Source: Eubacteriales bacterium
Lineage (GTDB): Bacteria > Bacillota > Clostridia > Oscillospirales > CAG-272
Length of the DNA: 40,403 bases
Assembly: GCA_051867855.1 (NCBI GenBank)
Contig: JBJDZF010000378.1
Location: 1-40,403 of the forward strand
Direction of reading: 5' to 3'
Shown piece by piece: positions 13,023 through 37,970 of the stretch. Both the position numbers and the translations under genes were made by a program. How positions within the stretch are numbered: the first letter of the stretch is position 1; every line of letters starts with the position of its first letter. Under the pieces are notes generated by a model. That model did no database searches. It had not been told where the DNA came from and saw only the letters and a list, made by a program, of their open reading frames with translations.

Positions 13023-13481
13023 TCAGAACGGAAGCTGATCGTCTTCTCCGAGTGCCTCAAATGCAGCTGCGCTGTAGTCTGGTGCCCTCTCAACCTCCGG
13101 CTGCGTCCGGTTCGGCTGTGTGTTTTCCGTTTTATGTTCTTCGTCCGCTTCGCTTTTCTTGGATGCGGCGAATCCTACCTCGTCCGCTACTATTTCCGTA
13201 AAGCTCCGTTTTTTCCCTTGCAGATCATCATAGGTTCTCGTCTGCAGCTGACCCACAATCAGGATCGGATCGCCTTTATGGAAAAATCTGCAAACAAATT
13301 CCGCCGTCTGACGCCAACAGACAATCAGAGGAAAATCCGTGACGCTCTTTCCGTCCTCCCCCTTGTACCGTCTGGAAACGCCGATTGAAAAGCTGCATAC
13401 CGATACGCCGGATGCTGTCTGCTTCAGCTCCGGATCCCGGCATATATTCCCCATCAGGATCACTTTGTTTAATGATGGCAT
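13023..13481 (-). CDS. ssb: Single-stranded DNA-binding protein
   Basis: 152 aa. OB-fold N-terminus NKVILMGNICRDPELKQTASGVSVCSFSIGV...WRQTAEF...KGDPILIVGQLQTRTY, disordered tail ending in the acidic tip DDQLPF. AAAGGGGGA SD. Confidence 0.9.
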   Translation of the reverse strand: MPSLNKVILMGNICRDPELKQTASGVSVCSFSIGVSRRYKGEDGKSVTDFPLIVCWRQTAEFVCRFFHKGDPILIVGQLQTRTYDDLQGKKRSFTEIVADEVGFAASKKSEADEEHKTENTQPNRTQPEVERAPDYSAAAFEALGEDDQLPF

Positions 13482-16539: not shown

Positions 16540-17433
16540 TCATAATTCCTCCATCATCTCTTCCGTTTCTTCGAGCGTAAGTTGATACGGGTCGTCACCG
16601 ATCCAACACTTGTACATGAATTCCGCGCTCGTATAGATTCCGGTGCAGTTTTTCCCGTCTCTTCGCCTTTTATCGATCATTTTTCCGAATGCTCGGATAT
16701 ATGCCCGCTTGTATGTATGATATTTTTCCAATTCCTGCTTCCTTTTATTATGCATCGGACACCCGATGCATCCGATCCGTCTGCATCCATATCGATACAG
16801 AGGATTGGATTCACATCCGTAATGCCGCAGGAACGTCCAGACGTCATTTTCCGTCCAGTCAACGATTGGATTTATCATTACATTATTAGTTCGATAACAT
16901 GATTCAACAAAACGCCTTGCTTCATCATTGTCCTGATTCATGATGATTCCGCCTTTTTTGTTGATCCTGTAATCAATTCCGTTGTCCTGCAACGCTTTTT
17001 CCGTTGTTTTTGGACGTCCGAGTATTTTCACATAATCGTTGTTGTCTCGTCTATTAACGCTTTCTTCCCATCTGACGCCGACTATTTTCTTTCGTCCTTT
17101 TCCTTCTTTTTCTTTGAGTTCCGAGCAGCAGTATCTTGAAATTCTCGTCGGCGGATATCCTTTTTGCACAATCAGCTCCCACATTGTGTGTGCCGGCTTA
17201 TCGATGATTACACTCGGTATGCTTTTAACATACCGCACGGTTTCCGGCGCATCTACCGTAGTTAAACTATGATGGATTTCGTGGTTCACTCCTGCGAGCT
17301 GCGCTAATATCCGGATGCAGTCACTGTCCTTCCCTCCGGAATAACAGAGAAAATACGGCTCATCTTTTGGTTCAAACTTCTGCAGATACGAGATCGCGCG
17401 CTTTTCTTTTTCAACATTCATATTTATTCCCAT
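16540..17433 (-). CDS. PAPS reductase / ATP-pyrophosphatase-family protein (phage IbrA/DndC-like class)
   Basis: 297 aa. PP-loop YSGGKDS, RYCCSELKE motif, C-terminal Cys cluster CRRIGCIGCP. Confidence 0.8.
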   Translation of the reverse strand: MGINMNVEKEKRAISYLQKFEPKDEPYFLCYSGGKDSDCIRILAQLAGVNHEIHHSLTTVDAPETVRYVKSIPSVIIDKPAHTMWELIVQKGYPPTRISRYCCSELKEKEGKGRKKIVGVRWEESVNRRDNNDYVKILGRPKTTEKALQDNGIDYRINKKGGIIMNQDNDEARRFVESCYRTNNVMINPIVDWTENDVWTFLRHYGCESNPLYRYGCRRIGCIGCPMHNKRKQELEKYHTYKRAYIRAFGKMIDKRRRDGKNCTGIYTSAEFMYKCWIGDDPYQLTLEETEEMMEEL

Positions 17434-17451: not shown

Positions 17452-18153
17452 TCATATAATTTCTTTAAGCTTTTTAATCGTGCTTCCACCATAATCGTTT
17501 TCAGTAAGAGCAATAAATTCTTCAACAGTAAAACAGTCTTCCATTTCTATTCCATGATTCTTCATAAAATTATTTCTCCCCATCTCGCAGGATCCGGTGA
17601 GATAGTGATGCCATTCGTAAAATTCAGAACACGGATATTTCCGACCTTTCTTAAATTTTTCGCAGAATCTCTCTATAGCTTCGTCTTCATCCATATTTTC
17701 CATGATCTTTTCGCGAAGCGCTTCTGCCGCTTTTTCGGCGGTTTCTCCATGCGCGAAAAATCCATCACCTTTCGCGACGTAGCAAGGTACAAGTGTAAAA
17801 TCAGATTGCAATATGTACCCTTTTGCGAGATTCCCATGAATGGATCTGATTACAGTTTGAATATGGTCTATGACCAAAACATAATATCCGTTAAAAAACG
17901 ATATTCCGTAGGAGGATCTTGATCCGCCGCCGTAGCCTCCGCCGGATTCGTTTCCGCCGGATTCGTTTCCGACGCCGTAGCCTCCGCCGGATTCGTTTCC
18001 GCCGCCGTAGCCTCCGCCGGATTCGTTTCCGCCGCCGTAGCCTCCGCCGGATTCGTTTCCGCCGCCGTAGCCGTAGCCGGCGCCGTAGCCGTAGCCGGAG
18101 CCGGAGCCGGAGCAATTATCCGCAATCCATTCAAGGATTTTTACTTTTTCCAT
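17452..18153 (-). CDS. Gly/Tyr-rich repeat protein with a globular C-terminal domain
   Basis: 233 aa. N-terminal SGSGSGYGYGAGYGYGGGNESGGGYGGGNES... repeats, then FNGYYVLVIDHIQT...AKGYIL..DFTLVPCYVAKGDGFFAHGET. Confidence 0.7.
   Translation of the reverse strand: MEKVKILEWIADNCSGSGSGYGYGAGYGYGGGNESGGGYGGGNESGGGYGGGNESGGGYGVGNESGGNESGGGYGGGSRSSYGISFFNGYYVLVIDHIQTVIRSIHGNLAKGYILQSDFTLVPCYVAKGDGFFAHGETAEKAAEALREKIMENMDEDEAIERFCEKFKKGRKYPCSEFYEWHHYLTGSCEMGRNNFMKNHGIEMEDCFTVEEFIALTENDYGGSTIKKLKEII
17926..18110. repeat. 30-bp tandem coding repeat (plus degenerate GTAGCC/GGAGCC tail)
   Basis: gccgccgtagcctccgccggattcgtttcc at 17926-17955, a 15-bp half unit, then units at 17971-18000, 18001-18030 and 18031-18060 (the last two identical). 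Confidence 0.9.
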
Positions 18154-20382: not shown

Positions 20383-20604
20383 TCAGAGGAACACCTTACG
20401 CGGATTTTCAACGTCCAGAAGATCGCAGATTCCGAATACCTCATGCAGCTTGAACGGATAATACCCGTGCATCTTCAGCGAAAGGGTTGACCGCGGAATG
20501 CCCAGATGTTCCGCCGCTTCCGTGAAGCTGATCTTCTTTTTCTTCATCAGTGTCTCGACAATGCACTGATCCGGATAATTCGGTTTCTTATACGTGTTTT
20601 TCAT
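20383..20604 (-). CDS. Cro-like small HTH regulator
   Basis: Start at ATG 20604 (AAGAGG SD). KKISFTEAAEHLGIPRSTLSLKMHG helix-turn-helix. Second gene of the leftward early operon. Confidence 0.7.
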   Translation of the reverse strand: MKNTYKKPNYPDQCIVETLMKKKKISFTEAAEHLGIPRSTLSLKMHGYYPFKLHEVFGICDLLDVENPRKVFL

Positions 20605-20631
20605 GCCCATACCTCTTTTAATTAAGTTTTT

Positions 20632-20784
20632 CCGCGCCCGCGCGGAGACGGCGACAGTTTCCGGTTCCATGCGCGGCATGTCGTCCGCTCCGGACTTATC
20701 GCCCTCTCTCCGAGGATTCCGCTATGGGAAACCTTTGAAAGGATATCGAGGCGTCTTGTTTTCACCGCCTCCGCGCGGGCACGG
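20632..20784. repeat. 22-bp GC-rich inverted repeat pair flanking a ~110-bp leader segment
   Basis: ccgcgcccgcgcggagacggcg (20632-20653) versus the reverse complement of 20763-20784 (ccgtgcccgcgcggaggcggtg): 19 of 22 identical. Both contain the 10-mer TCCGCGCGGG, also present at 12335-12344. Confidence 0.7.
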
Positions 20785-20791
20785 ATTCGTT

Positions 20792-20956
20792 TCAGTTTTT
20801 CGAATCGGAATCCGCTTCCGTCTTTTTCAACTTTCCTCCGTCAAGCAGACCGTTTCCGTAAGTCAGAAGCAGAATCCGCTGTACATCAGTCATTTGCATA
20901 ACAGATGTAATGATGCTTGTAATGATTTCTGTTTCGCTTTTTTCAAGTACTTTCAT
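20792..20956 (-). CDS. Hypothetical 54-aa protein, first ORF of the leftward early operon (below the track cutoff)
   Basis: Own translation MKVLEKSETEIITSIITSVMQMTDVQRILLLTYGNGLLDGGKLKKTEADSDSKN. GGCGGTGA SD. Confidence 0.45.
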   Translation of the reverse strand: MKVLEKSETEIITSIITSVMQMTDVQRILLLTYGNGLLDGGKLKKTEADSDSKN

Positions 20957-21002
20957 TGTTTCACCGCCTTTTTATTTTTCGTTATAATCATTCATAATTT
21001 TG

Positions 21003-21031
21003 TTGACACACTGTTTTTTGCGTGCTATAAT
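21003..21031 (+). promoter_or_regulatory. Perfect consensus promoter P2
   Basis: TTGACA (21003-21008), 17 nt, TGcTATAAT (21023-21031). Confidence 0.85.
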
Positions 21032-21049
21032 AAATTATGGGTGATAATT

Positions 21050-21493
21050 ATGAAAACCAAAATTTTTGTTTGCATTTTGATTTTTGTTGGAATTTGTACA
21101 TTTGCTGTTATTGCGCCAAACTATAAAGATGTACAGAATACTGGTGCTGTTGTTTCTGTTGATTCAAAACCGATTGCAATAAATCATGAAACCGAAGAAA
21201 ATCATGATTCCGAATTGCAGTTGGTTTCTATTACAGATCCGATATCTCCCGGAAAAGTTGCTGCTTTGATATTAAAAGGGAAACCGAATACGGATTATTA
21301 CCTTGTTGTGATCTATCAAAAAGAATCAAAGGCAAGTGGTCTCGGATTGGCCACATCAGATAGCACCGGTATGGTTAAATGGTATTGGAAGGTTGGAACA
21401 AGAACATATACAGGTGAAAAAGATATAAAGGTTTACTATGGTAATAGCAAAAAAGGAAAACCAATTTTCGAAATGAAATTCACTGTAAAATGA
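21050..21493 (+). CDS. Secreted or membrane-anchored small protein (147 aa), moron-like
   Basis: The real start is the internal Met at 21050, downstream of P2. The 299-aa track ORF spans the promoter. MKTKIFVCILIFVGICTFAVIAP signal/anchor, beta-rich C-terminal domain. AT-rich. Confidence 0.7.
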   Translation: MKTKIFVCILIFVGICTFAVIAPNYKDVQNTGAVVSVDSKPIAINHETEENHDSELQLVSITDPISPGKVAALILKGKPNTDYYLVVIYQKESKASGLGLATSDSTGMVKWYWKVGTRTYTGEKDIKVYYGNSKKGKPIFEMKFTVK

Positions 21494-21551
21494 TTTCAAG
21501 TTTAGTTTTGCAAGCACATTTTACGAATTTCTTATGTACTTGTTCGTACTA

Positions 21552-21580
21552 ATTATATCACATTAATTGTACTATGTCAA
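21552..21580 (-). promoter_or_regulatory. Perfect consensus leftward promoter, back-to-back with the repressor promoter
   Basis: Minus strand reads TTGACA (21575-21580), 17 nt, TGaTATAAT (21552-21560). Confidence 0.8.
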
Positions 21581-21625
21581 CCACTTTTATAAATTTATTT
21601 TTTATTTTTTGTACTCACAATTCCA

Positions 21626-21654
21626 TTGACAGCCGAAGATTTTTATGATATAAT
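21626..21654 (+). promoter_or_regulatory. Perfect consensus promoter P3 of the XRE repressor gene
   Basis: TTGACA (21626-21631), 17 nt, TGaTATAAT (21646-21654). Confidence 0.85.
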
Positions 21655-21680
21655 ATGTTTTGAAGTAAGGAGGTGGTTAT

Positions 21681-22076
21681 ATGGGCATCGAAGAAAGGAT
21701 CAAGAAAGTTCGTAAAGATAACGGATTGAATCAAACTGAATTCGGGAAGTCTCTCGGGGTAAGCAGAAATGTCATCAAAACATACGAGCTTTCTCTTGTC
21801 AAGCCGTCTGAAATTTTCATCGATCATCTTTGCGTTGTATACGGTATAAATCCGGAATGGCTCGAAACCGGACAAGGAAGCATGCACGCCGATATATCGC
21901 GCGAAGAACAGATTGCGCGATTCGTAGGAGAAGCGATGAAGGAGGAAGGATCGTTCAAACATGCATTGATAACCCTTTTATCCGAGCTGGATGAAGACGG
22001 ATGGAAGAAGCTGGACGAGGCCGCACATGCTCTGCTCGATGCGCAGGAGCAGATCAGGAAAAGCAGCGATCCTTAA
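21681..22076 (+). CDS. XRE-family (CI-like) repressor, no peptidase domain
   Basis: 131 aa. IKKVRKDNGLNQTEFGKSLGVSRNVIKTYE...GINPEWLETGQG is a canonical HTH_3 with the WL.TG tail. AAGGAGG SD. Confidence 0.85.
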   Translation: MGIEERIKKVRKDNGLNQTEFGKSLGVSRNVIKTYELSLVKPSEIFIDHLCVVYGINPEWLETGQGSMHADISREEQIARFVGEAMKEEGSFKHALITLLSELDEDGWKKLDEAAHALLDAQEQIRKSSDP

Positions 22077-22089
22077 TTCTTCCGAAGGC

Positions 22090-22134
22090 AAAAAAAAAGA
22101 AACGATGGAATAAAAACCATCGTTTCTTTTTTTG
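22090..22134. terminator. Strong bidirectional terminator
   Basis: 12-bp perfect stem AAGAAACGATGG/CCATCGTTTCTT (22097-22108 / 22117-22128), with an A-run before and a T-run after. Confidence 0.8.
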
Positions 22135-22142
22135 TCATTTCT

Positions 22143-22274
22143 CTATTGCCATGCTTTCAGAATCGTATGAATCCGAACAATCTCTGTATAGCTTGATCTT
22201 CGGATCATGTCCATGATTTCAATCAGCATCTGCAATCGTTTCATTTCTTCCCCCTCATTCTTTTTTCCGCCCAT
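22143..22274 (-). CDS. 43-aa peptide with its own perfect promoter (below the track cutoff)
   Basis: AGGAGGA SD 7 nt before ATG 22274. Own translation MGGKKNEGEEMKRLQMLIEIMDMIRRSSYTEIVRIHTILKAWQ, stop TAG 22143-22145. Confidence 0.6.
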   Translation of the reverse strand: MGGKKNEGEEMKRLQMLIEIMDMIRRSSYTEIVRIHTILKAWQ

Positions 22275-22319
22275 CTGTTTTTCCTCCTATGTTTAAGAAC
22301 GTTTGTTCTTTTTTCTAAT

Positions 22320-22348
22320 ATTATACCATAGGAAAACGGTTTTGTCAA
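22320..22348 (-). promoter_or_regulatory. Perfect consensus promoter P4
   Basis: Minus strand reads TTGACA (22343-22348), 17 nt, TGgTATAAT (22320-22328). The -35 overlaps the stop of the upstream ORF. Confidence 0.85.
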
Positions 22349-22809
22349 CGCATATTTTGCTTTAAGTTTCTGATTCTGTTTTCAAGCTCCTGATTTTCTT
22401 CTTCAAGTACAGCGATTTCGATTTCTTTTTCTTTGCATCTTTTCTTCAGTTCGAATATGTATGTACTGACGATTTTTGCGTTTTCAATGCCGCTGCTTTG
22501 GATTTCAAGGTCGATGCTGCAGTGATCTTCCTGAAGCTTCTTGATTTCGTTTTCCTTCATGATTTCCCTGACACGGTCATGTACGGAATTTATCGTCCGA
22601 TTCATTTCTATTCCGTGTCTTTCGATCATGGATTTCTTTTCCTTTTCGTGCTCTTTTGCTTCTCTGATTTTCTCAAAATATAAATCTTCGTTTTCCTTTT
22701 TCAGTTTCAGCACCTCTTCTCTTTTATCGAAATAAAGCACGAAGAAAACGACAGCTGTTATAATGAGTATAATGATTACCGAATACATGAATCCAACCAA
22801 CTCTGACAT
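22345..22809 (-). CDS. N-terminally anchored coiled-coil membrane protein (154 aa)
   Basis: Start at ATG 22809 (AAAGGAG SD). TM helix FMYSVIIILIITAVVFFVLYF, then a Lys/Glu-rich heptad-like sequence. Very AT-rich. Confidence 0.7.
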   Translation of the reverse strand: MSELVGFMYSVIIILIITAVVFFVLYFDKREEVLKLKKENEDLYFEKIREAKEHEKEKKSMIERHGIEMNRTINSVHDRVREIMKENEIKKLQEDHCSIDLEIQSSGIENAKIVSTYIFELKKRCKEKEIEIAVLEEENQELENRIRNLKQNMR

Positions 22810-22830
22810 GATATCACTCCTTTCACTACT

Positions 22831-22859
22831 ATTATACATCATTTTTTATTGTTTTTCAA
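22831..22859 (-). promoter_or_regulatory. Near-consensus promoter
   Basis: Minus strand reads TTGAAA (22854-22859), 17 nt, TATAAT (22831-22836). Confidence 0.7.
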
Positions 22860-22867
22860 TTATTCTG

Positions 22868-22896
22868 TTGATTTTTGTTCCGGATTATGATATAAT
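22868..22896 (+). promoter_or_regulatory. Near-consensus promoter, back-to-back with 22831-22859
   Basis: TTGATT (22868-22873), 17 nt, TGaTATAAT (22888-22896). Confidence 0.75.
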
Positions 22897-22920
22897 TCAA
22901 TATAAAAGAGGTGTATTGAA

Positions 22921-23430
22921 ATGATTGAAGAAATGGATTTTTCCGATTTTGTTATTACGATCTGTTATGCTTGTCAGGTAGCCTCATTGATCTGTATCTA
23001 TAGATACTACGATTACAGAGAAATCAATGAATATTATCATATGAAAGCAAGAAATAAGGTAACGCACAGCTTCTTGAAAAACCTTTTTGCGATTTATTTC
23101 ATCCAACACCTGATAGGATTTATATTATATTTCATTGCTTATTGGTATATTTTCACCGATTTCATTATCATGATACCGCTTGGCTTAATGTGCTTTACAA
23201 TTTCCGTATTGCTTCGCTTGATGAACAAAAAAAAGAATTTCGGTTTTGGATTATCTCTCATTTTATTTTTTATCTTATTTTTGCCTATGTCATATCTCTC
23301 GCTTCGGTATTGCGATAAGTTCACGGATTATTGTACAGAATCCTTTTATTCATGTTTTTGTTTATATATTTTACCAATGTATGGGGTTTTATTTATCGAT
23401 TATAATACATATCTTGATAAAACCGAATAA
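22921..23430 (+). CDS. Polytopic membrane protein (about 5 TM helices, 169 aa)
   Basis: AAGAGGTG SD. Aromatic/Cys-rich hydrophobic segments. Very AT-rich. No recognisable family. Confidence 0.75.
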   Translation: MIEEMDFSDFVITICYACQVASLICIYRYYDYREINEYYHMKARNKVTHSFLKNLFAIYFIQHLIGFILYFIAYWYIFTDFIIMIPLGLMCFTISVLLRLMNKKKNFGFGLSLILFFILFLPMSYLSLRYCDKFTDYCTESFYSCFCLYILPMYGVLFIDYNTYLDKTE

Positions 23431-23612
23431 ACCCTTATTATAATTCATTTATATATTATCATATTTCCAGGAATTTTTCAATAACCAATTAAGACGGAAA
23501 CGGAACCGCTTATTATTTTTCCGATACCATCCGTTCCGAAAAGTCGGAAACGGTCGAAGTCTGTAAGACGATTTCCTGTTTCCGTGTCTTATTTCTATAC
23601 AGTATTTATAAT

Positions 23613-23645
23613 GAAAAAGAGACAGTTTCCGGTCTCTTTTTTTAT
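23613..23645. terminator. Bidirectional terminator
   Basis: AAAGAGAC-agtttccg-GTCTCTTT (23616-23623 / 23632-23639) with A5 before and T-run after. Confidence 0.7.
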
Positions 23646-24310
23646 TTTCCGAAGATCCACATCTTCCGTTTCTTTTTTTCCGGCTCCTTGGTTTCCGCGG
23701 CTTCTATCCGCATGATATCGTTTGCGTGTAAGGCCTGTGCGCCCTTCGTGCTGTCCATTGCATCTGACAGCGCCTGCGTCAGGTTTGCATTCTGTGATAG
23801 CAATGATTTGATCTGCTCGTCTTTTTCCTCAATCTGCCGTTTCAGAAACGCGCACGTTCCGCGAAGCTCTTCCTCCGAAACCGACAGGATCCGTATTGTT
23901 TCGGTTGCAGCCGAAAGTTTCAGCTTCATCGCTTCGGTTTCACGCTCCATTTCCGCCATGAAACCTGAAATTCCTCGGTTTCCGCTGACAACTTTTTCAC
24001 CTTCGGTTTCACCTGTTTTTTCTTCTTCTGACAACCCGGAAAAAGTTTCCCCCGTTCCGGTTTCAGAATTGGCCCCGTCATATCCGGTTTTTTCGGTTTC
24101 ATCTATGGTTTCAGTGGAAACCGGTTTCACCTCTTTTTTTCTCTTTTTTTCATCGTTTTCCGAAACCAATATTTTCTCCGCTTCTTCTGTCAGGTAGATG
24201 GTCTTATCCTCCGCCGTGAAAAAGGTTTCACGCGGAAGTTTCAGCACGCGCTTATAAAGCGCCTGTCTGGATATCCCCATTTCACCCGCAAGCTGCCGTA
24301 TCGTTTTCAT
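23642..24310 (-). CDS. HTH protein translationally coupled to rep (plasmid replication-associated, DUF536-like arrangement)
   Basis: 222 aa. MKTIRQLAGEMGISRQALYKRVLKLP HTH, acidic Thr/Glu-rich linker, C-terminal coiled coil. ATGA overlap with rep. Confidence 0.55.
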   Translation of the reverse strand: MKTIRQLAGEMGISRQALYKRVLKLPRETFFTAEDKTIYLTEEAEKILVSENDEKKRKKEVKPVSTETIDETEKTGYDGANSETGTGETFSGLSEEEKTGETEGEKVVSGNRGISGFMAEMERETEAMKLKLSAATETIRILSVSEEELRGTCAFLKRQIEEKDEQIKSLLSQNANLTQALSDAMDSTKGAQALHANDIMRIEAAETKEPEKKKRKMWIFGK

Positions 24311-25368
24311 CTTTTCCCGCCTCCGCTCCCGTCAGATGCAAGCATCTTGCAGAAATACCTGTACCGGCTTGTATGTACATCCCTCGTCTGCATCTCATCG
24401 TATTTCCGCTTGAGATAATGATATCGGCATATGTCCGGATCGTCAAACCGTGTTCCGACCGTATCGTCAGGAACTGCTTTCACAAGGTCATAGAGATACC
24501 GCATTTCGCTTTCATCAAACTCTCTGTCGCAGGCGTCCGCTAAAAACTCAAGCGTTTCGTCCTCGTAGGTATGCGCGACCTCCTCGAATTCCGTGATATC
24601 GACGCATCCGTCCCCGTCCGTTTTCTGCATATCCATATACGCACGCAGAGACAGCGGATCGGAAAATGCATCGTTTTTCATGATCCGGAATACGACCGCC
24701 GTGACGCGTCCTCCGCGCCCGTGCTTTTCAAGCGTATAGGTATACCTGATATCCGTGTTTTCCGCAAGCGCCGTCTGGCATGCGTCCAATACGCACGCTT
24801 TGAACCGGTCGAATCGGTCATAGGTTCCCGGCTCGATTCCGAGCAGAGACCGTATTTCCGGCAGCGTGAAGCGCCGCTCACCAAGTTTTTCATACTGCTT
24901 CAGAATTTCATACATGCGCAGCTGGTTTTTCGATTCAAGCCGGAGTGCGTTCCACAGCTCGTAGCGGAAATATTCTCGTTTGAACCGGAACAGAAGCGGC
25001 ATAGCGTCCTCATGCGCGCGGAATGTGATATACCAGCCGTCCGGCCGATGCTCGCACCGGCAGCGGTCGAACAGATGGAACTGCTCATACCCGCCGTCGC
25101 TTGTATCAACCGTTATAAGGCGTGAGACAAGCCTTGCGGTTGTTTCCTTAAGCTGTGCTAAATTGATCTTTTTCAGCTCCATAATGCGCTGAAAATCGGC
25201 AAGCGCGAATTCCTGCGACCGCGTTTCCTCATCCATGATATTGATTTTTGACAGGTAAATCGAGAAGAAGCGAAGCTCCTGCAGCGTCATCTTCGTTTCT
25301 CTGACTTCGTTCAGCACATTTCGCTTGGTCACAATCGCGTGTTCGCGTATTGTTTTCATAAAGCCCAT
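24307..25368 (-). CDS. rep: Rep_3-family (RepB-type) iteron-binding theta replication initiator
   Basis: IVTKRNVLNEVRETKMTLQELRFFSIYLSKI, YELWNALRLESKNQLRMYEILKQY, FTLPEIRSLLGI..YDRFDRFKACVLDACQTALAENTDIRYTY and GRGGRVTAVVFRI follow the Rep_3 pattern. Start is ATG 25368 or 25359, because the track start 25395 lies inside the promoter. Confidence 0.8.
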   Translation of the reverse strand: MGFMKTIREHAIVTKRNVLNEVRETKMTLQELRFFSIYLSKINIMDEETRSQEFALADFQRIMELKKINLAQLKETTARLVSRLITVDTSDGGYEQFHLFDRCRCEHRPDGWYITFRAHEDAMPLLFRFKREYFRYELWNALRLESKNQLRMYEILKQYEKLGERRFTLPEIRSLLGIEPGTYDRFDRFKACVLDACQTALAENTDIRYTYTLEKHGRGGRVTAVVFRIMKNDAFSDPLSLRAYMDMQKTDGDGCVDITEFEEVAHTYEDETLEFLADACDREFDESEMRYLYDLVKAVPDDTVGTRFDDPDICRYHYLKRKYDEMQTRDVHTSRYRYFCKMLASDGSGGGKR

Positions 25369-25383
25369 CACCTCACCTCTCTG

Positions 25384-25412
25384 ATTATACCACATTTCAA
25401 CACCTTTGTCAA
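25384..25412 (-). promoter_or_regulatory. Perfect consensus rep promoter
   Basis: Minus strand reads TTGACA (25407-25412), 17 nt, TGgTATAAT (25384-25392). Lies between the iterons and rep. Confidence 0.85.
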
Positions 25413-25471
25413 CCTTTTGGTGTGATGTTCCGTTTTCCCCTGATGAAATGCATTTTTATCAGAAATATTGA

Positions 25472-25677
25472 GGTGGGAAGTTCGGAATATTGTGGTGGGA
25501 AGTTCGGAATATTGTGGTGGGAAGTTCGGTTCGTTCTGTGGAAATCCTGTTGAAATCGTGTTTATTATCTGTGGAAGAAAATATTTCGAAGTGGGAAGTT
25601 CGGAATCTCGTGGTGGGAAGTTCGGAATATCGAAGTGTGAAGTTCGGAACATCGTGGTGGGAAGTTCGTTTTTCTAT
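25472..25677. repeat. Seven 22-bp iterons in two clusters (3 + 4)
   Basis: GGTGGGAAGTTCGGAATATTGT-type units starting at 25472, 25494, 25516 and at 25590, 25612, 25634, 25656, with exact 22-bp phasing within each cluster. The spacer holds two DnaA-box-like 9-mers (TGTGGAAAT 25537-25545; TGTGGAAGA 25570-25578; 7 of 9 to TGTGGATAA). Confidence 0.9.
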
Positions 25678-25740
25678 CCATTTATTATATTAAAAGAATA
25701 TAAAATATATATAAAAAGATAGATAGATAGATTATATGGA
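25668..25740. other. AT-rich stretch next to the iterons (candidate DNA unwinding element)
   Basis: tttctatccatttattatattaaaagaatataaaatatatataaaaagatagatagatagattatatgg. Confidence 0.5.
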
Positions 25741-25778
25741 AAACGGGAAAATTTTTCGTTTTCCGTTTTTCCACATCC

Positions 25779-25809
25779 GAAAAAAAGAGAAGCACCGCTG
25801 AAAACGGTG
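25779..25809 (-). terminator. Weak candidate terminator after the 91-aa gene
   Basis: 5-bp stem CACCG/CGGTG. On the minus strand it is followed by CUUCUCUUUUUUU. Confidence 0.3.
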
Positions 25810-27792: not shown

Positions 27793-30700
27793 TCAGATTC
27801 CTATCTTTTTCAGTCCTATGCTTCCTATCCCGATGCTCGGAACGGAGAAGGAACTTTTCGATATCTTCTGCGCCTTGTATGGATTTGACGACTGACTGCC
27901 GCCCGTTGCGATCCATAGCGCGCTTGCCTGTCCCTTTCCGAGCAGCAGACGATTGATTGCGCTTTCCCGCTCCTCGTTTGATATATAGCCGTCCTGGTTT
28001 GTATCGGCGTTATTGAGCACCCATAGATAGATATCTACGTCAACACCTGCGTCGATTGCTGTATGATACCTCTCATATGCGCCGTCCGTAAGAACGGTTT
28101 TTATGGCGGTATCCAGTGTCTTCCCGGAAAGCGTCGTTTCCCATATCGCGGCGATCTTATCCGCGCTCGATTTCGCTCCCATCAGCGCATCGGTCACGGC
28201 AACGGCTGATTGTGCGTCAAGCCCGTTTGCGATGAGTTTCTTATACGTTTTCGGGTCGACTGTAAAACCTGTCGCAAACGGGAACGTATCTCCGATCTGC
28301 ATGATTCTGTCATCGCTGTATCCCATCTCCGAAAGCCATGCAAGGAACCGCGTTGACCGCTGCGCCGCCGTAATGCTGTCGTCTGCGTTCAGTCTAGCGT
28401 TTTCCGATCTGATTTTCAGAAATTCCTTGTAAGTCATGCCGTAACCGAGTATCGCGTTCACTTTGTCATCGTCGGTATAACCGATGAAGTTTCCGTCGTC
28501 ATCTGTTTCCTTGGTTGCGATCATGCCCTCGTAGACAGCCCGCATTGCGTCTGCATCCATATCGGTTGCAAGCAACAGATCTATTTTTTCAAAATTCCTG
28601 TCCGCCTCCCGTATATTCCGGACGGTATTGACCGCCTCCGCATAATCAGCTCCAGCCTCGACAGCGCTGTCGACTGTATTTTTCTGTCTGTCCGTAGCGA
28701 CGTATTCATAATAAAGCTCTGCTTTTTGCTCATCATCAAGCTCCGTTAATCCGTCTATGTACGCGGCCTGTGCAATGGCTAGCGTTTCGTTTTCTCTTTT
28801 CTCCACATCCGAAATACCGACCGCGATCTCGTATGCCGTTGACGGCTTAACTCCCGCATCCGTCAGTGCCTGATAGGCTTCCGTCTGCTTTTTTTTCAGC
28901 GTATCGAAATTCTGATTGACCCATTTCTGCTGTGAAAGCGTTCCGGACTTACCGAACAGCAGCGCACGGACGGTATCTGCTCCCGTCACGGTGTATTTCA
29001 GCTGTCCCTGCTTATAACCGTCCGTATAGTCTCCCGCCTGAAGAATAGAAAGCACGCCGTTCAGTGTCTTTCGTAACTGATTGCCTCCGGTCACAGTAAC
29101 GGACATAATGTCAAGCGCCTGCTGCATCAGATGGTAGAAAAGCTGCGCTTCCTCGTCCTTCTGTGCCGCCTCGATCTGGGCAATCATCTCCGGATCAGTC
29201 TCTTTCCTTTTATCCTTGGCAAGAGAATCGATTGCCGAAATATCGCCTCCTGCTTTTATCGCGTTAGAAACGCTCGGAAGGTTCACGGGAAGTCTTGAAT
29301 CTACGTCAGCTCCGAATGCACGTGCTGCGGCTAAAATGGAAGAACCGAACGGTACATCGTCGATAAATTCCGATACGGTTTTCCCATACGATTTTGCGCC
29401 TGCTACGATCGCTTCCAGAAGTGTCATGTCGTTTTCCTCGTCCTCATCACGGTCTCGGACGAACTTCTTGATGACGTTTACTAAGATTCCGTTCAGAACG
29501 CCGGATGCTCCCGTTATGAAATTGCCGAACAGAAGGCCTAAGATATCGAACATGGAGACCGTTCCGAGACCGAGCGCCGAAAAAATGTTGTTTGCAATCC
29601 ATGCGGCTGCCGCCTGACTTGCCGCAAACTTTGCAATCGTTTCCGCGGCCGCTTTCTTCCCTTTCGTCTGTTCGATCCGCTTCCACTCCTCCGGAAGCGT
29701 TTTCGAGATATTCTCCCACTGTGCAAGCGTTTCACGCTGGAACAGCGTCATAAGCTGTATGATAACGTTTTTCGACCGGAAAACAAGAGGTGATGCGCCG
29801 CGCAGTCTGGATGCAAGAATCGATCGTGCCTTGCTGTCTGCATACCGCATTGCTTCCGCTTCGTTCATTCCGTTATCGATTCCCTGCTGAAAGAATGAAT
29901 AGACAGCGAATTTTGACATGAAGATATCCGTCTGTTCCCATGTTTTTTCCGCAAGGTCGACCGCTATGTCTGCGGCTTTTACAATCCGCTCTGACCCTGA
30001 CGCCGCAATGTCCTTTTCGTAAGTTGTGCGCTGCATTTTCGTTTTCTCTGCAAGAAACGTCGACTTTTCAGAAATCCGATACCGCTGCTCCAGATCGTTG
30101 TTCGGATTGAATACAAGCATAGGCGCCGAAAACGCATGCTTTCCCGTTTCCGCTATGACATTCGGAATCTGGGAAAGCTGCCGGAGCGAGGATGCAACAT
30201 TGAACGTCATCATGGTACGGTTCGACCACCTGATCAGTGCGCCTGCCTTTCGCAGTGTGGTTCTCCCGATTGTGTTTTCCTGATCGCGTGACAGAATCTG
30301 CTTTCCGGCGAGATCGTCGGTGTAATTCTTCAGCCATGTGACAAGAGGACCGTAATCCTGTGATGCTTCCCTTAACTGTCTGTCCTTTTCGTTAATGGAT
30401 ATTGCATCCTCTCCCGTATCCGTCAGATCATCCAGCATATCCGCGCGTCTGTCCTGTGATGCTTTATCGAATTTGTCTCGGATATAGCTTTCAAGAGTTC
30501 GCAGCTTCATGATATCGTCGATATGGTATATGGCTTCGTTTGCCGCGTACAGATACCGCTCCATATTGGCGGCAGCATCATATACGGTTTCCGTTCCCAT
30601 TCTGCGCTGTGCAAAGGAAAGCCATTTTCTAAACGGTCTGAAATCAGCCGTCAAACCCGCAATGGACGCCGGAAGGTCAGTCACTTCGTCAAATCCTGCC

Positions 30701-33700
30701 GTTTTCATGATCTGTTCCCATGCGTTCATCGCTTTTTCCGGCTGCCTGTGCGGCATATAGTTTTTCCGGAAACGGATTTCGCCGCGTCCGTGAATGACGG
30801 ACACCTCATTGATTGCGTCATAGAGATCGTTGAGCATGTCTCTGTAGTCCTTCGCCGCCGCTTCCGCCTTCCGAATGACCGCATCGACGGAATAATTCTT
30901 TTTTTTCTTTGCGTTCAGAACGGCATTTGAAGCAATGGATTGCAGCGTGGATCTAAGTGAAACATATGCCTCCTCGTCATTTGCTTTCCTGATCCGTTCT
31001 GCTTTTGCGATTTTTCTGTAATCCTTTGCCTGCTCGTCGAGTGTTTTCCTCTCGAATTCCTTTTCCCGAATCGCACTTTCCAGAGCATTTTTCCTCTGTT
31101 TAGCGGATTCGCGCCACACTTCGTAATATTCGTTTCCTTCAGGATCGTATTTCGGACTTCCGTTGTGCTGCTCCTGATAGGATTTTCTGGTTGTTTTATT
31201 CAGTTCCTTGGTTGTTTCTTCAAGGGATTTCCGCATCCGAGCAATTTCACGGTCAACGCGTTTAACCGCTTCCTCGCTTCTTTTTGCGCGCAATTCGTCA
31301 AGCAGCTCTGTTCCGTCCGATTTCGAAACGGCGGAAATAATCTCCTCTACCGCTCCTTCCTCCCCTCTCATAAGGGCGGTAAGCATATCCCGTGTAACAA
31401 CAGGCTTTTCTTCTCCGTTATCCAAAGCATATTCCGCGACGATCTGCGCAAGTGCGCTTTCGGTTTTCGTCAGCTTATGCTTCATGATGCGTTCCATCTG
31501 TCTGTTAGTCTGCCGTCTCGCGGATGCGGAGTTATCTATGACCGGTTTGATAAAGGTATCGGTCAGCTCCCGTGCAAGCTCCGTATCGCCGAAAAACCGT
31601 GTCATGACGTTTTCAGGATTGGAAAGATTCAGTTCAAGCGTTTTCGATCCCTTTGTCTTTATGGAATCCCATTTGAAATCCGAAAATATCTGATCGAGAT
31701 TTGTTTTAATCGTGTTCAAGACGGACTTATTGCTGCCTCTGATTCCCGCCATCATCATTGTGTCAAGATCGCGGTGCATCTTTGCGAGCATTGATATGTG
31801 GTTATAAAATTCGCTTTTCTGGTCTGTTTCTTCGAGTTTGTATTTCCCTCTTGCAATTGCTAATGCCTTCGTATCGATTTCCTCGGGTATACCGAACTGC
31901 TTGATATACTGATTGATCCGTTTCCGGATATCTTCCGCTGCGTGATTCGCGTCTATGATTCCCTTTGCATCAAAGTAATTATCCGCGACGGCGCCTGATA
32001 TCCGATATCCGAGCTTTCTCATGGCAGTCTTGGCATTAAGAGCTTCCCGTCTGCGCATTTCGTAATTCTGTGTAAGAATCCGTTTCGCTTCCTCCGGTGT
32101 CTTTCCTTCCGCGATCAGCGCGGAATAAACGCCGGCTTCCTCTGCATCGGTTGGACCCGGTATTCCGGTTTCGGAACCGTTTCCCGTTTCGGTTTCAAAA
32201 AGACGCGGATTCTCCCATTCGGAAAGCGCGTTGTCAAGAGCGTTCTGCCTCTCCGGGTCAGCTGTTTTGTTCCCTCCCTCCTTTTTCATTGTCTCCATCA
32301 CGGATCCGGTTACGTCCCGTCTCAACCCGAACTCGTCTTTGATTCGGTTGACGGCAGCCCCTTTGATTGCGTTGAAAGCGCGCTGCTTGTCCCCGTATTC
32401 CTTATAAAGGCTGTAGTACATATCCCGTTCGGTTTCCGTTGCGTTTTTCGGAAGCTCGCCAGTTACGGATGCATAATCCTCGTTATTCCTGATATCGTCC
32501 GAAACCGTCTCGTCCATGTTTTCCGGAATCCCGGCATTTTCCTTGTACTCCTCTGAAAACGCCTGCATTTCCGCCTGTCGCTTGACGTTCCGTTTTTCCC
32601 GTTCTGCCGATTTCTGCTGCTCCCGATATCCTGCCATCGTTTTCGGTTTGGTTCTTTTTACATTCGGAATAGTGTTTTCAGCACCTGTGTCGTCAACCTC
32701 TCCTTTTGTTTCCATCATAGGTACAACATCCGACAATCTCCGTCTTTCCTGTTTTTCGATTACGTTTCCGTTTTCGTCAACCTCGATTTCGTCAAGCGGG
32801 TTTTTCTCCTTCTCCTCACGCACATCCTCATCAATCGAATATTGCGCATCCTCTCTGTATGCAAACTGCTTTTCTCCGAGCGCCTTTGCGTAAAGGTTCC
32901 GCGCATCTGTGATGAATTTCCGTTCCTTTGCCGCCTTGTTTCCGAGCTTCGCAAGAATGCTATCCAAAAAAGATCGGATTTTCTGACCGATGGATCTGTT
33001 TTCGTGCACAAGGGATGTGATGCTCTGCTCGTCCGTGAGCAGATTTTTCGAAACATATTCGGCTGTTACCTCCGCCCGTATCTGTGCGGCTGTTCTCCCG
33101 TATATTTTTCCGTCTGCATACAGATTCTGGTTGCGCCGCATGATCGTTTCATATGTACCGTCTGCTTTCATTTTCCGGAGTATCATGGTTTCGAGTTGGC
33201 TGTATTCCTCCGAATCACCGATTGCATGTGTCAGCTCATGGGATAGAATCTGCGCGGTTGCCGTATCTGACTTAGCGTTTACATAAATTACTCCGTCCCT
33301 GTAATACCCGTTTTCCATGATGCCCTCTCCGCCCGGTGCCGTATAGAACCGAACCGGAATCCCGATTGCATCAGAAATGTTTTTCGCTGTCTGTATGGAA
33401 TCCTCGTTTGCGCCGTTCTCGCGCCCTGTGCGCTCCGTTTCCGTGTCGATCTGGTTTGTTTTCGTTTTTTTGTTTTCCGCGCGCTGTGCGGTCTCAGTGA
33501 CGTCGGTTTCGCCTCTCTTATACATCTCCGCGCGTTCCCGGATCGTATCGAGCAGCTCCGCGCTTCTGTTTCTGATGTCCTCCGTTGTTGCAGTCTTTGC
33601 GTTAATAGTCGTACCGTCCCCAAGCTTTTCCGAAACGCGGTTCAGTGTTTCCGCCGCCGCTCGGATGTCGGCCGGATTCATATTTTCGGCAAACGCGTTG

Positions 33701-35151
33701 ATTGCATAAACGTTATCGCTTACACCCTTTGTCGCGGGCGATACCGCATCCGCAACCGCCACGACGGTTCCGAATGCACCCATCAGTCCACCGACGAGAG
33801 CGCCCGACACGCCGGATCGTATCATTTCCGACGTATCGAAAATGCCGTCGTCACCGAACCATTTTTTATCCGGCTCGAATGTCAGCTTATCGACGATGCC
33901 GGAAAGCGGTACGTTGACGACCTCCTCGGCGCCCTCTTCGGCCATATTGAACGCCGCTTTCATAAGCGTCTTGACAAGCGTCATCGCCGTCGAGCCTGTC
34001 CTTGAATCCAGAACGCCTGCAACCGACGCAATGTCCGTAAAACCGCCTAGATTTTCCGTGAACCCTTCTACGAATGCGTTTCCGGCCGAATTGATGAAAT
34101 TTTCAAGGATTCGTTTTTCGTCTCCGTAATCCTTCTGGTTTTCGAAAAACGTATTCCCGAATGTGTTTCCCATGAGAATCGCCTCGTGCGGAAGGCTTTT
34201 TACCGCGTTGACAACGCCGTCCGCAATCGACTTCGAGACTGTTTTCAGATTCAGATTCCCGGCCTTGTATGCCGCCTGTATGCCTTTCTGCGCGGTGTCG
34301 ACAAGCGTTTTCGGCTCTCCGAGCGGAAGCGCCTTCATTATCACCATATTCGGAATGTTCTGCCCGATCTGAAACGCGGCTTCTCCGAGCAGGAATTTTT
34401 CTGCTGTATTCAGATCGTTTTCGTTCGCCCACGCTTCCGCGTTCTGTCTCTCAAAGGTCGGAAGCTCAAGCTTTTTGTATGCCCGTACCGTTTCCTGTGG
34501 TACGCCTGCCGATTCGGCTATTTTCATGACGGCGCGGTCTTCATCGTAGGATGCGGACAGAAAAAGTGTATTCCTCTCGTTTTCGTTTTCGGACAGATAC
34601 CGCTCAATCCGGTTGATCTCCTCTCCGCGTTTACCTCCCGTTCCGATATCCGCAAGTGCGTTTTCGATACCGTATGCGTAAGATGTTGCGCCGGACAGGA
34701 AACCCGCCCCGGCATTCTGCATAAAATAGAGCCCTCTGTTTTTCTCCGTCTGATTGATTTCCGGAAGCGGTGCCTTTGACGTCGGAACAGACTGCCCCGG
34801 AGCGATATCCGGTATGTTTCCCTCTCGCTCTGTATACGCCTTGACAGCGGAACGCATCTGCTGCTGTTCCGCCTGTTTCCGTATATCCGATATCCGTCTG
34901 TCGGTTATGTTTTTTCCGATTTCGCCGTCCTGTTTGTACATGCCGCCATGTCCGCTTTCGTTTCCTGTTGATAAAGCGGATCTGTTTTTCTCCGCAATCA
35001 GATCGGACGCATCGCTTTGTAAAAGCCCCATGCTCTCAAGGCGTTTTCTGATCGCTTCGTTTTCCTCAAACGTCGGAAGAACGACAGGCGTTACTCTATT
35101 TTCGCTTTCTTTTTTTTCGTACAGTCCGATATCTGATAGTTTGAGTGCCAT
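27793..35151 (-). CDS. Giant (2452 aa) polyvalent / ejection- or tape-measure-like virion protein with a zincin motif
   Basis: Uninterrupted ORF, AGGAG SD. HELTH at 33226-33240 in the context YRDGVIYVNAKSDTATAQILSHELTHAIG. Gly-rich hydrophobic helix clusters (for example aa ~1835-1897, nt 29461-29649). Canonical EF-hand loop DTNQDGYISNEE at 27970-28005. Confidence 0.8.
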   Translation of the reverse strand: MALKLSDIGLYEKKESENRVTPVVLPTFEENEAIRKRLESMGLLQSDASDLIAEKNRSALSTGNESGHGGMYKQDGEIGKNITDRRISDIRKQAEQQQMRSAVKAYTEREGNIPDIAPGQSVPTSKAPLPEINQTEKNRGLYFMQNAGAGFLSGATSYAYGIENALADIGTGGKRGEEINRIERYLSENENERNTLFLSASYDEDRAVMKIAESAGVPQETVRAYKKLELPTFERQNAEAWANENDLNTAEKFLLGEAAFQIGQNIPNMVIMKALPLGEPKTLVDTAQKGIQAAYKAGNLNLKTVSKSIADGVVNAVKSLPHEAILMGNTFGNTFFENQKDYGDEKRILENFINSAGNAFVEGFTENLGGFTDIASVAGVLDSRTGSTAMTLVKTLMKAAFNMAEEGAEEVVNVPLSGIVDKLTFEPDKKWFGDDGIFDTSEMIRSGVSGALVGGLMGAFGTVVAVADAVSPATKGVSDNVYAINAFAENMNPADIRAAAETLNRVSEKLGDGTTINAKTATTEDIRNRSAELLDTIRERAEMYKRGETDVTETAQRAENKKTKTNQIDTETERTGRENGANEDSIQTAKNISDAIGIPVRFYTAPGGEGIMENGYYRDGVIYVNAKSDTATAQILSHELTHAIGDSEEYSQLETMILRKMKADGTYETIMRRNQNLYADGKIYGRTAAQIRAEVTAEYVSKNLLTDEQSITSLVHENRSIGQKIRSFLDSILAKLGNKAAKERKFITDARNLYAKALGEKQFAYREDAQYSIDEDVREEKEKNPLDEIEVDENGNVIEKQERRRLSDVVPMMETKGEVDDTGAENTIPNVKRTKPKTMAGYREQQKSAEREKRNVKRQAEMQAFSEEYKENAGIPENMDETVSDDIRNNEDYASVTGELPKNATETERDMYYSLYKEYGDKQRAFNAIKGAAVNRIKDEFGLRRDVTGSVMETMKKEGGNKTADPERQNALDNALSEWENPRLFETETGNGSETGIPGPTDAEEAGVYSALIAEGKTPEEAKRILTQNYEMRRREALNAKTAMRKLGYRISGAVADNYFDAKGIIDANHAAEDIRKRINQYIKQFGIPEEIDTKALAIARGKYKLEETDQKSEFYNHISMLAKMHRDLDTMMMAGIRGSNKSVLNTIKTNLDQIFSDFKWDSIKTKGSKTLELNLSNPENVMTRFFGDTELARELTDTFIKPVIDNSASARRQTNRQMERIMKHKLTKTESALAQIVAEYALDNGEEKPVVTRDMLTALMRGEEGAVEEIISAVSKSDGTELLDELRAKRSEEAVKRVDREIARMRKSLEETTKELNKTTRKSYQEQHNGSPKYDPEGNEYYEVWRESAKQRKNALESAIREKEFERKTLDEQAKDYRKIAKAERIRKANDEEAYVSLRSTLQSIASNAVLNAKKKKNYSVDAVIRKAEAAAKDYRDMLNDLYDAINEVSVIHGRGEIRFRKNYMPHRQPEKAMNAWEQIMKTAGFDEVTDLPASIAGLTADFRPFRKWLSFAQRRMGTETVYDAAANMERYLYAANEAIYHIDDIMKLRTLESYIRDKFDKASQDRRADMLDDLTDTGEDAISINEKDRQLREASQDYGPLVTWLKNYTDDLAGKQILSRDQENTIGRTTLRKAGALIRWSNRTMMTFNVASSLRQLSQIPNVIAETGKHAFSAPMLVFNPNNDLEQRYRISEKSTFLAEKTKMQRTTYEKDIAASGSERIVKAADIAVDLAEKTWEQTDIFMSKFAVYSFFQQGIDNGMNEAEAMRYADSKARSILASRLRGASPLVFRSKNVIIQLMTLFQRETLAQWENISKTLPEEWKRIEQTKGKKAAAETIAKFAASQAAAAWIANNIFSALGLGTVSMFDILGLLFGNFITGASGVLNGILVNVIKKFVRDRDEDEENDMTLLEAIVAGAKSYGKTVSEFIDDVPFGSSILAAARAFGADVDSRLPVNLPSVSNAIKAGGDISAIDSLAKDKRKETDPEMIAQIEAAQKDEEAQLFYHLMQQALDIMSVTVTGGNQLRKTLNGVLSILQAGDYTDGYKQGQLKYTVTGADTVRALLFGKSGTLSQQKWVNQNFDTLKKKQTEAYQALTDAGVKPSTAYEIAVGISDVEKRENETLAIAQAAYIDGLTELDDEQKAELYYEYVATDRQKNTVDSAVEAGADYAEAVNTVRNIREADRNFEKIDLLLATDMDADAMRAVYEGMIATKETDDDGNFIGYTDDDKVNAILGYGMTYKEFLKIRSENARLNADDSITAAQRSTRFLAWLSEMGYSDDRIMQIGDTFPFATGFTVDPKTYKKLIANGLDAQSAVAVTDALMGAKSSADKIAAIWETTLSGKTLDTAIKTVLTDGAYERYHTAIDAGVDVDIYLWVLNNADTNQDGYISNEERESAINRLLLGKGQASALWIATGGSQSSNPYKAQKISKSSFSVPSIGIGSIGLKKIGI

Positions 35152-35164
35152 ATGATTCTCCTAA

Positions 35165-37967: not shown

Positions 37968-37970
37968 ATC

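Follow-up and report, generated by a model that had tools for sequence, protein, structure and literature searches.

The window analysed here, positions 1 to 40,403 of contig JBJDZF010000378.1 (assembly GCA_051867855.1, Eubacteriales bacterium), comprises 40,403 bp with a GC content of 47% and, to judge from its genes, is a tailed phage of the P22-portal type from uncultured gut Clostridia. An earlier note, made from the sequence of this stretch alone, had placed a plasmid-type theta replicon within an integrase-less, temperate-looking phage. The replicon in question occupies a 2.2-kb unit at 23613-25809, in which an iteron-bearing origin is followed by a rep gene and a coupled gene for a partition-like (Par-like) protein. 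This replicon is of the plasmid type.

On the minus strand, rep (24307..25368) encodes a Rep_3-family iteron-binding initiator with WH1 and WH2 domains, as assigned by both Pfam and a family profile. The Rep_3 pattern that the earlier note had recognised in an open reading frame (ORF) of the 350-aa class was borne out by the Pfam search, in which membership meant that both domains of the family models (PF01051/PF21205) scored above gathering level. ORF 24307-25395(-) matched Rep3_N at 1.4e-19 (71.3 bits; cutoff 22.4) and Rep3_C at 1.1e-7 (32.4 bits; cutoff 21.1). A profile built from 20 members of the Rep family matched RepE (1rep/2z9o; about 4e-6) and pi (2nra), and Rep carries a conserved C-terminal extension of about 110 aa. 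Because the ATG at 25395 falls within the -10 box, rep probably starts at the ATG at 25368 or at the alternative start at 25359, the latter being conserved in relatives. The rep promoter (25384..25412, minus strand) consists of TTGACA, a 17-nt spacer and the extended -10 element TGgTATAAT. It agrees with the sigma-70 consensus at 12 of 12 positions, with the TG present, and lies between the iterons and rep, as had been noted; the same layout is found in the related contigs L129 and L008. The rep stop codon overlaps the start of the next gene as ATGA (24307-24310), and the operon is closed by a bidirectional intrinsic terminator (23613..23642; an 11-bp stem with an A-run on one side and a T-run on the other) that is conserved in L129, L012 and L130. 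Both the coupling of rep to a helix-turn-helix (HTH) gene and the terminator at the end of the unit had thus been read correctly. A further intrinsic terminator upstream of the origin (25793..25809, minus strand; 7-bp stem with four GC pairs, then a T-run) is predicted to end the late-gene transcript, insulating the origin from read-through.

The origin lies directly upstream of this promoter. The iteron core GTGGGAAGTTCGG occurs in seven copies at no more than two mismatches, all on one strand within 25473-25669 and nowhere else in the window, with spacings of 22, 22, 74, 22, 22 and 22; none of 100 shuffled sequences reached seven copies. The copies form a proximal cluster of three 22-bp direct repeats with 97% matches (25464..25529, minus strand; cores at 25473, 25495 and 25517) and a distal cluster of four (25588..25669, minus strand; cores at 25591, 25613, 25635 and 25657), in agreement with the 3 + 4 arrangement and exact phasing described earlier. 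A degenerate eighth site with three mismatches lies on the plus strand 7 bp upstream of the -35 box (25420..25432). This site is a candidate operator for Rep autorepression, suggestive by its position alone, as about nine such matches are expected by chance in the window. Next to the distal cluster is the AT-rich stretch that had also been pointed out (25670..25737; GC content of 11.7% at 25680-25739, against 47% for the window). It is a candidate DNA-unwinding element, and equivalent tracts are present in L129 and L008. No copy-control RNA or other Rfam family was found.

The proposal of two DnaA boxes between the clusters held only in part. The spacer (25530..25587) contains TTCCACA(G) motifs at 25537-25543 and 25570-25576 (minus strand), each of which is two mismatches away from TTATCCACA. 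What stood was the TTCCACA core, three of whose seven occurrences in the window fall in the origin and which is found again at corresponding places in L129, L012 and L008, in some cases as a one-mismatch box. Beyond the AT-rich stretch, an origin-distal block (25738..25777) combines an inverted repeat (GGAAAACGGGAAA/TTTTTCGTTTTCC) with the DnaA-box-like sequence TTTTCCACA (25767-25775; one mismatch). This block is conserved in L129, and L008 has two copies of TTTTCCACA at the equivalent place. One-mismatch DnaA boxes occur at chance level across the window, the copy at 25767 being the one that falls in the origin. L001, which is more distantly related, carries five perfect TGTGGATAA boxes next to its iterons. 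We also considered as an insertion scar a 26-nt direct repeat whose copies flank the cassette at 23638-23663 and 25752-25777; it is probably coincidental, because one copy is the coding 3' end of the par-like gene.

Rep_3 replicons typified by RepE, pi and P1 RepA combine iteron binding, DnaA-assisted opening of an AT-rich stretch, autorepression and handcuffing (PMC4980987). Like the replicons of F (RepE/ori2), R6K (pi), pSC101 and P1 (RepA/oriR), the unit described here has a WH1+WH2 initiator, direct repeats of about two helical turns upstream of rep, an AT-rich stretch, DnaA-box-like motifs and a promoter beside the repeats, which is the classic autoregulated layout. It differs from them in that its Rep is no more than 32% identical to the Reps in PLSDB and bears the ~110-aa extension, its iterons all lie upstream of rep, and its DnaA boxes are degenerate. 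It also differs in its setting, within a phage and in an uncultured gut Eubacteriales host.

The par-like gene (23642..24310, minus strand) encodes a protein of 222 aa that, taken alone, had no significant match in Pfam, PHROG or NCBIfam. A family set was the basis of a profile search, comprising four close homologues, a further one from the IMG/VR contig L002 and six proteins of 163-170 aa. The top match of this profile was PDB entry 8csh, 'Par' (E=4.3e-6), from residue 1 and over the full length, and a profile of the N-terminal 58 residues only again returned Par (E=4e-4), with Par residues 1-41 aligned. In an AlphaFold2 model of the protein (predicted local distance difference test score, pLDDT, 74 overall), residues 1-41 form a beta-alpha-alpha-beta-beta winged HTH (pLDDT about 88), which is followed by an acidic disordered linker (62-110) and one long helix (112-220) that may represent a coiled coil. 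The five best PDB matches of the model in Foldseek were all the RacA DNA-binding domain. The C-terminus is a basic-hydrophobic tail, KKKRKMWIFGK, in which (K/R)xW(F/I)xxLFGK is conserved family-wide; it may resemble the membrane-targeting helix of MinD and RocS, but a simple hydrophobic-moment calculation was not distinctive. The RacA-type winged-HTH fold class has been grouped with Par and RocS, and DUF536 has been reported in both of the latter (PMC11500499). These profile and model matches suggest that the ATGA-coupled HTH protein is a remote homologue of Par, the single-protein partition factor of pSK1, making it a candidate for a partition function that is free of nucleoside triphosphatase (NTPase) and coupled to rep.

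Like pSK1 Par (8csh), RocS and RacA, the protein has a MerR/RacA-type winged HTH starting MKTI..ADE, a predicted coiled coil and a basic-hydrophobic C-terminus (PMC11500499), and like pSK1 Par it is encoded beside a plasmid rep gene. It differs from its 163-170-aa homologues by the long acidic disordered insert at 62-110. Unlike pSK1 par, which is divergent from rep, the par-like gene is co-transcribed downstream of rep. The earlier note had seen no partition genes of the ParA/ParB type in this phage. That was right for the established multi-component systems (ParABS, ParMRC and TubZRC), as no ParA, ParB, ParM or TubZ Pfam family was present in any ORF of at least 72 aa in six frames; the gap it left in the argument is probably filled by the coupled Par homologue. 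In the intergenic region 3' of the gene, an island at 23495..23560 carries CGGAAACGG repeats and an imperfect inverted repeat (CCGTTCCGA...TCGGAAACGG). It stands out as a conserved block in an otherwise diverged spacer, with CGGAAAC occurring four times in 230 bp, and might, speculatively, be a candidate Par-binding (centromere-like) site. A separate observation is that rep and the par-like gene open with an identical 14 nt, ATGAAAAC(G/A)ATACG (24297-24310; 25346-25359), so that both proteins begin MKTIR. This may be a coincidence, MKTI being conserved in the Par family including pSK1 Par.

Recombinases were sought by Pfam scanning of 144 ORFs of at least 72 aa in six frames, together with three ORFs beyond the window end and a giant ORF described below. 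No integrase, resolvase, recombinase, transposase or protelomerase was found in the window or in the 1.8 kb beyond it that is covered by the Logan contig L134, which upheld the earlier statement that none is encoded in any frame. No tRNA or att-like feature was found in the window, and both of its ends are phage DNA with no host flank. An apparent 299-aa ORF at 20594-21493 was considered as a hidden integrase or ParM, but its N-terminal part is an artefact of a long open frame upstream; the true gene encodes a secreted protein of 147 aa. With a plasmid-style origin, a putative segregation gene and no integrase, the phage most likely persists as a free plasmid and not by insertion into the chromosome. 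We favour, with somewhat better than even confidence, the interpretation that the 2.2-kb unit derives from a plasmid and serves a temperate P22-portal phage as a self-contained maintenance cassette, which would most likely make this phage a phage-plasmid.

The gene content of the window was established by PHROG and Pfam scans of its proteins. These identified TerS (GP3_package; 9043-9621), TerL (Terminase_3; 7520-9046), a P22-like portal (5412-7541), the major capsid protein (MCP; 2725-3729), a homologue of an internal virion protein (36318-37967) and a GH25-SLH endolysin (38161-39297), along with tail fibre and r1t-type holin genes. The window thus holds the complete set of morphogenesis, packaging and lysis genes expected on the phage side of a phage-plasmid. 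On the plasmid side, it has a plasmid-homologous initiator and a putative partition function, the two features by which phage-plasmids are recognised (PMC11652158), though the Par homology is remote.

A second replication module lies within the leftward early operon and consists of an HUH rolling-circle initiator (13511-14377, minus strand; phrog_3584, 6e-50; REP_ORF2-G2P, 4e-11), with a conserved HHH motif, and SSB (13023-13481, minus strand; 4e-29). We presume that this module is the lytic replicon. Relatives of the HUH Rep at about 30% identity were found in 25 IMG/VR contigs, and an IMG/VR scan with the single HUH Rep protein returned nothing. HUH initiators of the P2 gpA type drive rolling-circle lytic replication in tailed phages. 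Like these, the HUH protein of the window (REP_ORF2-G2P) is encoded in an early operon with SSB adjacent; unlike P2 gpA, it falls in Pfam PF23343, which is defined on ORF2/G2P replication-associated proteins. As the early operon already holds a lytic-type module, the separate, terminator-insulated Rep_3 unit would be redundant for lytic growth.

The lysogeny genes named in the earlier note are both present. A Cro-like HTH protein matching phrog_4583 and phrog_3 (transcriptional repressor) is encoded by the first gene of the leftward early operon (20383..20679, minus strand). The CI-like gene (21681..22076, plus strand) encodes an XRE/RstR-type repressor homologous to the HTH_3 repressor of a sister lineage, has its own promoter and terminator, and sits in a low-GC island (28-38%) at 21001-23500 that adjoins the cassette. 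Three further island genes, which likewise have promoters of their own and lack a family match, encode the secreted 147-aa protein (21050-21493, plus strand), a 165-aa protein with a transmembrane segment and a coiled coil (22345-22842, minus strand) and a polytopic membrane protein of 169 aa (22921-23430, plus strand). These membrane and secreted proteins look like the products of lysogen-expressed morons. The Rep_3 cassette, at 47-53% GC, resembles the phage backbone and not the moron island.

The Rep_3/iteron unit could instead be an infection-phase origin, serving early theta, carrier-state or pseudolysogenic replication before a switch to the HUH module; the phage would then form no stable plasmid prophage, and the HTH-coiled-coil protein would regulate rep. 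Rep_3-like initiators are indeed known in a few phage families (phrog_4402 and phrog_2172, both of which the window Rep matches; five phage records), contigs of this group do not exceed ~44 kb, as for any non-integrating phage, and the sister lineage represented by L008 has no Par-like gene. However, the unit is separately transcribed from a constitutive-type promoter, is insulated by terminators and lies outside the early operon, where the HUH Rep and SSB are complete. Its coupling to a Par/RacA-type segregation homologue also argues against a role limited to infection, and the CI-like and Cro-like repressors and the moron island indicate lysogeny. We also counted the partition homologue in favour of a phage-plasmid, since a replicon serving lytic growth alone would gain nothing from such a protein. 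On balance, we regard an infection-phase origin as unlikely.

The contig is not a complete genome. Its start cuts a tail-fibre ORF of >441 aa (1-1301) and its end truncates a 58-aa gene (40380-40403). L134 is 99.98% identical to 34568-40403 and continues 1832 bp past the window end, and this extension (1-1832) contains tail-fibre-like ORFs and the 58-aa gene. No terminal repeat was found at the window ends. The ORF at the start would stop eight codons into the window end in an ATGA overlap, which had suggested a closed circle; that reading was rejected because the genes in the 1832-bp extension of L134 are missing from the window. The tail-fibre gene is also where other fragments break, and those with a 253-aa tail gene do not bridge the gap. 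That all examined fragments break in this gene suggests a strain-variable or repetitive receptor-binding region.

An ordinary integrating prophage, with its integrase in the unsampled gap or with a host-encoded or unrecognised recombinase, would reduce the Rep_3 unit to an accessory. Apart from the incompleteness of the window, this account draws on relatives that integrate. L190 (portal 46% and MCP 51% identical), which was the sole structural relative among 80 mostly unspecific loci in a scan anchored on the PAPS reductase, encodes a large serine recombinase beside an HTH_3 repressor, and the MCP family, with more than 1000 homologues, includes members of about 55% identity that lie on contigs of 80-343 kb. 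L223 (GCA_040776805.1, JAXGZS010000002.1) is an element of ~17.5 kb integrated by ftsQ/ftsZ, in which precomputed Pfam annotation contains no integrase or replication gene. Its genes are those for CI (S24 peptidase), Cro, TerL, a P22-like portal and an MCP with 56% identity to that of the window, and it could represent a defective prophage or else an element akin to a satellite. However, the gap in the window lies between the tail-fibre genes and the lysis cassette, and both the recovered 1.8 kb and the equivalent part of the sister lineage hold only tail-type ORFs. The phage DNA at both window ends and the lack of tRNA or att-like features speak against integration as well, and we consider this explanation very improbable.

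Relatives of the phage retain the cassette. In L012 and L129 (contigs of up to 40,077 bp), Rep is 92% and the Par-like protein about 70% identical to those of the window, and the order of giant ORF, small genes, origin, rep, par-like gene, membrane gene and CI is shared; the end points of these contigs differ from those of the window. The sister lineage, represented by L008, has a Rep_3 gene at the same locus, with identities of 51% for Rep, 75% for MCP and 73% for the HUH Rep. Its MCP was present in 161 sample blocks, 78 of which had contigs of 20-50 kb and none of which had contigs of >50 kb (longest, 44,042 bp); two of these contigs, 43,943 and 43,859 bp long, end at different points. We read this pattern as showing no sign of integration. 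Together, L219 and L008 tile all but ~2 kb of the sister-lineage circle. In the window, the untiled part corresponds to one uninterrupted stretch, from the end of a 553-aa gene through a gene of roughly 388 aa into the start of the giant ORF. No recombinase domain was present in the tiled part according to precomputed Pfam annotation, and the capsid-lysis interval contains tail-type ORFs only. Across a wider range, the architecture of iterons with an AT-rich stretch was found in eight relatives (L012, L001, L002, L003, L005, L046, which is a named plasmid, L055 and L129), and L056 has three shorter repeats.

The wider Rep family belongs largely to plasmids. A tblastn search with Rep hit 1444 PLSDB plasmids (at no more than 32% identity) against five phage records, and 1933 homologues were found at E<=1e-10 in a large protein collection. 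In GTDB genomes, family members of 34-50% identity are mostly on contigs of 2-15 kb from Ruminococcus, Oscillospiraceae and other Clostridia, and no structural genes of this phage were found at these loci, so that the search yielded no host isolate. 'Oscillospiraceae bacterium PP1C4 plasmid p2' (6967 bp) has six 22-bp iterons directly upstream of rep, and a Johnsonella ignava contig has at least eight. This distribution bears on the idea that a small selfish plasmid, of which the cassette would be the whole or a remnant, entered the phage genome by recombination and hitchhikes for transduction with no role in the phage life cycle. The predominance of the family on small plasmid-like contigs fits that idea, as do the compact, terminator-bounded form of the cassette and the location of distant Par-like homologues on contigs of 3.8 and 6.75 kb, beside genes of the toxin-antitoxin type (a RelB-family gene and a Gp49/HTH_3 pair). 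Against it, the cassette has been kept at the same locus across lineages whose Reps are down to 51% identical. In a neighbour-joining tree of WH1-WH2 (no bootstraps), the window and L008 Reps formed sister groups apart from the plasmid Reps, which suggests that the cassette is old rather than a recent insertion. Moreover, the GC content of the cassette matches that of the phage backbone, iterons and promoter have stayed intact in all relatives examined, and the six-frame Pfam search gave the phage no other means of lysogenic maintenance. A hitchhiking plasmid thus appears improbable.

Several observations nevertheless weigh against a phage-plasmid. The window falls short of a closed genome by at least 1.8 kb in the tail-fibre region, and contigs of no more than 44 kb fit a virulent phage equally well. 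L008 keeps the same origin layout and consensus promoter with just two iterons and no Par-like gene, and the window contains no perfect DnaA box. The Par assignment is one of remote homology to whose score the coiled-coil part adds; DUF536 was matched weakly in 5 of the 12 family members (best E=0.0097), and the best Foldseek E-value was 0.012. The Pfam scan of the window revealed neither a toxin-antitoxin nor a multimer-resolution function. Furthermore, because L223 is integrated without a Pfam integrase, the absence of an integrase is no proof of episomal life.

Following the paradigm of RepE, pi and P1 RepA, we infer how such a phage-plasmid may work. In the lysogen, the CI-like repressor would silence the early operon with its HUH Rep and SSB, while the rep-par operon would be transcribed from its own sigma-70 promoter. 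The seven 22-bp iterons would be occupied by Rep monomers, which would start theta replication by opening the 12%-GC stretch, probably helped by host DnaA bound to the degenerate TTCCACA boxes. Copy number would be kept low by autoregulation, with Rep binding near its own promoter, and by handcuffing between the iteron clusters. By analogy with pSK1 Par, RocS and RacA, the Par-like protein would bind a centromere-like site with its winged HTH, oligomerise through its coiled coil and position or tether the copies, ensuring that the prophage passes to each daughter cell. On induction, the phage would switch to rolling-circle replication and presumably headful packaging, the latter being presumed because TerS, TerL and portal are of the P22 type.

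Phage-plasmids with a plasmid-type initiator and a separate lytic replicon are established, as in P1 with oriR/RepA and oriL/RepL (PMC11652158, PMC10879196). Like phage-plasmids of the P1 type, the window phage combines a tailed-phage genome with a plasmid-type initiator, a putative partition function and repressors and has no integrase, and like P1 it has two distinct replication modules, for maintenance and for lytic growth. It has no sequence relationship to P1, N15 or SSU5. In contrast to P1, it is a podovirus-like P22-portal phage of 40-44 kb whose lytic initiator is of the HUH rolling-circle type, and it has a single Par-type protein in place of a ParA/ParB pair; we infer its plasmid state, unlike that of P1.

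An ATGA-coupled pair of Rep_3 (43% identity) and Par-like genes was also found in an HK97-type contig, L104/L002 (IMGVR_UViG_3300010049_000029). The morphogenesis genes of this contig (TerL_ATPase, Phage_portal, Peptidase_S78 and Phage_capsid) are unrelated to those of the window, and it additionally encodes a HepT-like toxin, a second Rep_3 protein of 250 aa and an HUH Rep. It is a candidate for a second, structurally unrelated phage-plasmid. The serine recombinase in L190 and the Rep_3-Par-like pair in the HK97-type contig suggest that lysogeny modules are exchanged among relatives. More tentatively, and with less than even confidence, we propose that the coupled rep-par pair is a portable 'plasmidisation cassette' that moves between unrelated phages of gut Clostridia (P22-portal here, HK97 in L104) and replaces a repressor-adjacent integrase, turning integrating temperate phages into phage-plasmids. 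The Par-like protein would then be the first NTPase-free, pSK1-type partition system known in a phage. Among these computational findings, the less expected ones are the apparent pSK1-Par-type homologue in a phage, the rep-par pair in seemingly unrelated backbones and the predicted repressor-proximal integrase in a relative.

Most catalogued phage-plasmids come from cultured Proteobacteria and Bacilli, and anaerobic gut Clostridia are poorly covered. If our interpretation holds, a widespread family of gut phage-plasmids would be added, given the sample blocks in which the sister lineage occurs, and a minimal two-gene cassette of Rep_3 and a single-protein Par would be able to replace integration. 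The cassette is also a compact candidate replicon and stability module for vectors in genetically intractable Oscillospiraceae and Ruminococcaceae. Since such contigs are neither 'lytic', despite having no integrase, nor 'plasmid', lifestyle predictors will misclassify them.

In database searches, the phage had no nucleotide match among GenBank phages and its portal had no match in PLSDB; elsewhere, the portal matched just two fragmentary sequences of uncultured fecal phage. Exact junction and iteron-dimer patterns were absent from IMG/VR, and exact look-ups of the window SSB and 92-aa proteins found neither on record. A degenerate iteron-dimer scan of metagenomes yielded 11 loci, which we regard as chance matches because none encodes any window protein. 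The giant ORF (27793-35151, minus strand; 2452 aa) had no Pfam or PHROG match, and an IMG/VR alignment scan with its product returned nothing. Relatives have it at 38-69% identity, and a HELTH (HExxH metalloprotease-like) motif near residue 638 is invariant; its product is presumably a virion-associated multidomain protein.

Two repeat arrays were observed outside the origin. At 9815-9877, 6.3 tandem copies of the 10-bp unit GCATCTTCCG, with a period of one helical turn, sit in the divergent region between the TerS gene (minus strand) and the plus-strand genes from 9992; this array may serve to bind a regulator or may be related to a pac site. Four 30-bp tandem repeats (98% matching) at 17953-18072, with overlapping 18-bp and 6-bp periodicities, fall within ORF 17452-18153(-), which encodes an early-operon protein without a family match. 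The accessory genes at 10277-10642 and 16540-17433 encode an ArdC-N-like anti-restriction domain and a PAPS-reductase-like protein, the latter gene being common to hundreds of unrelated IMG/VR phages. In the sister lineage, an AcrVA2-like gene is present (L219, 806-1897).

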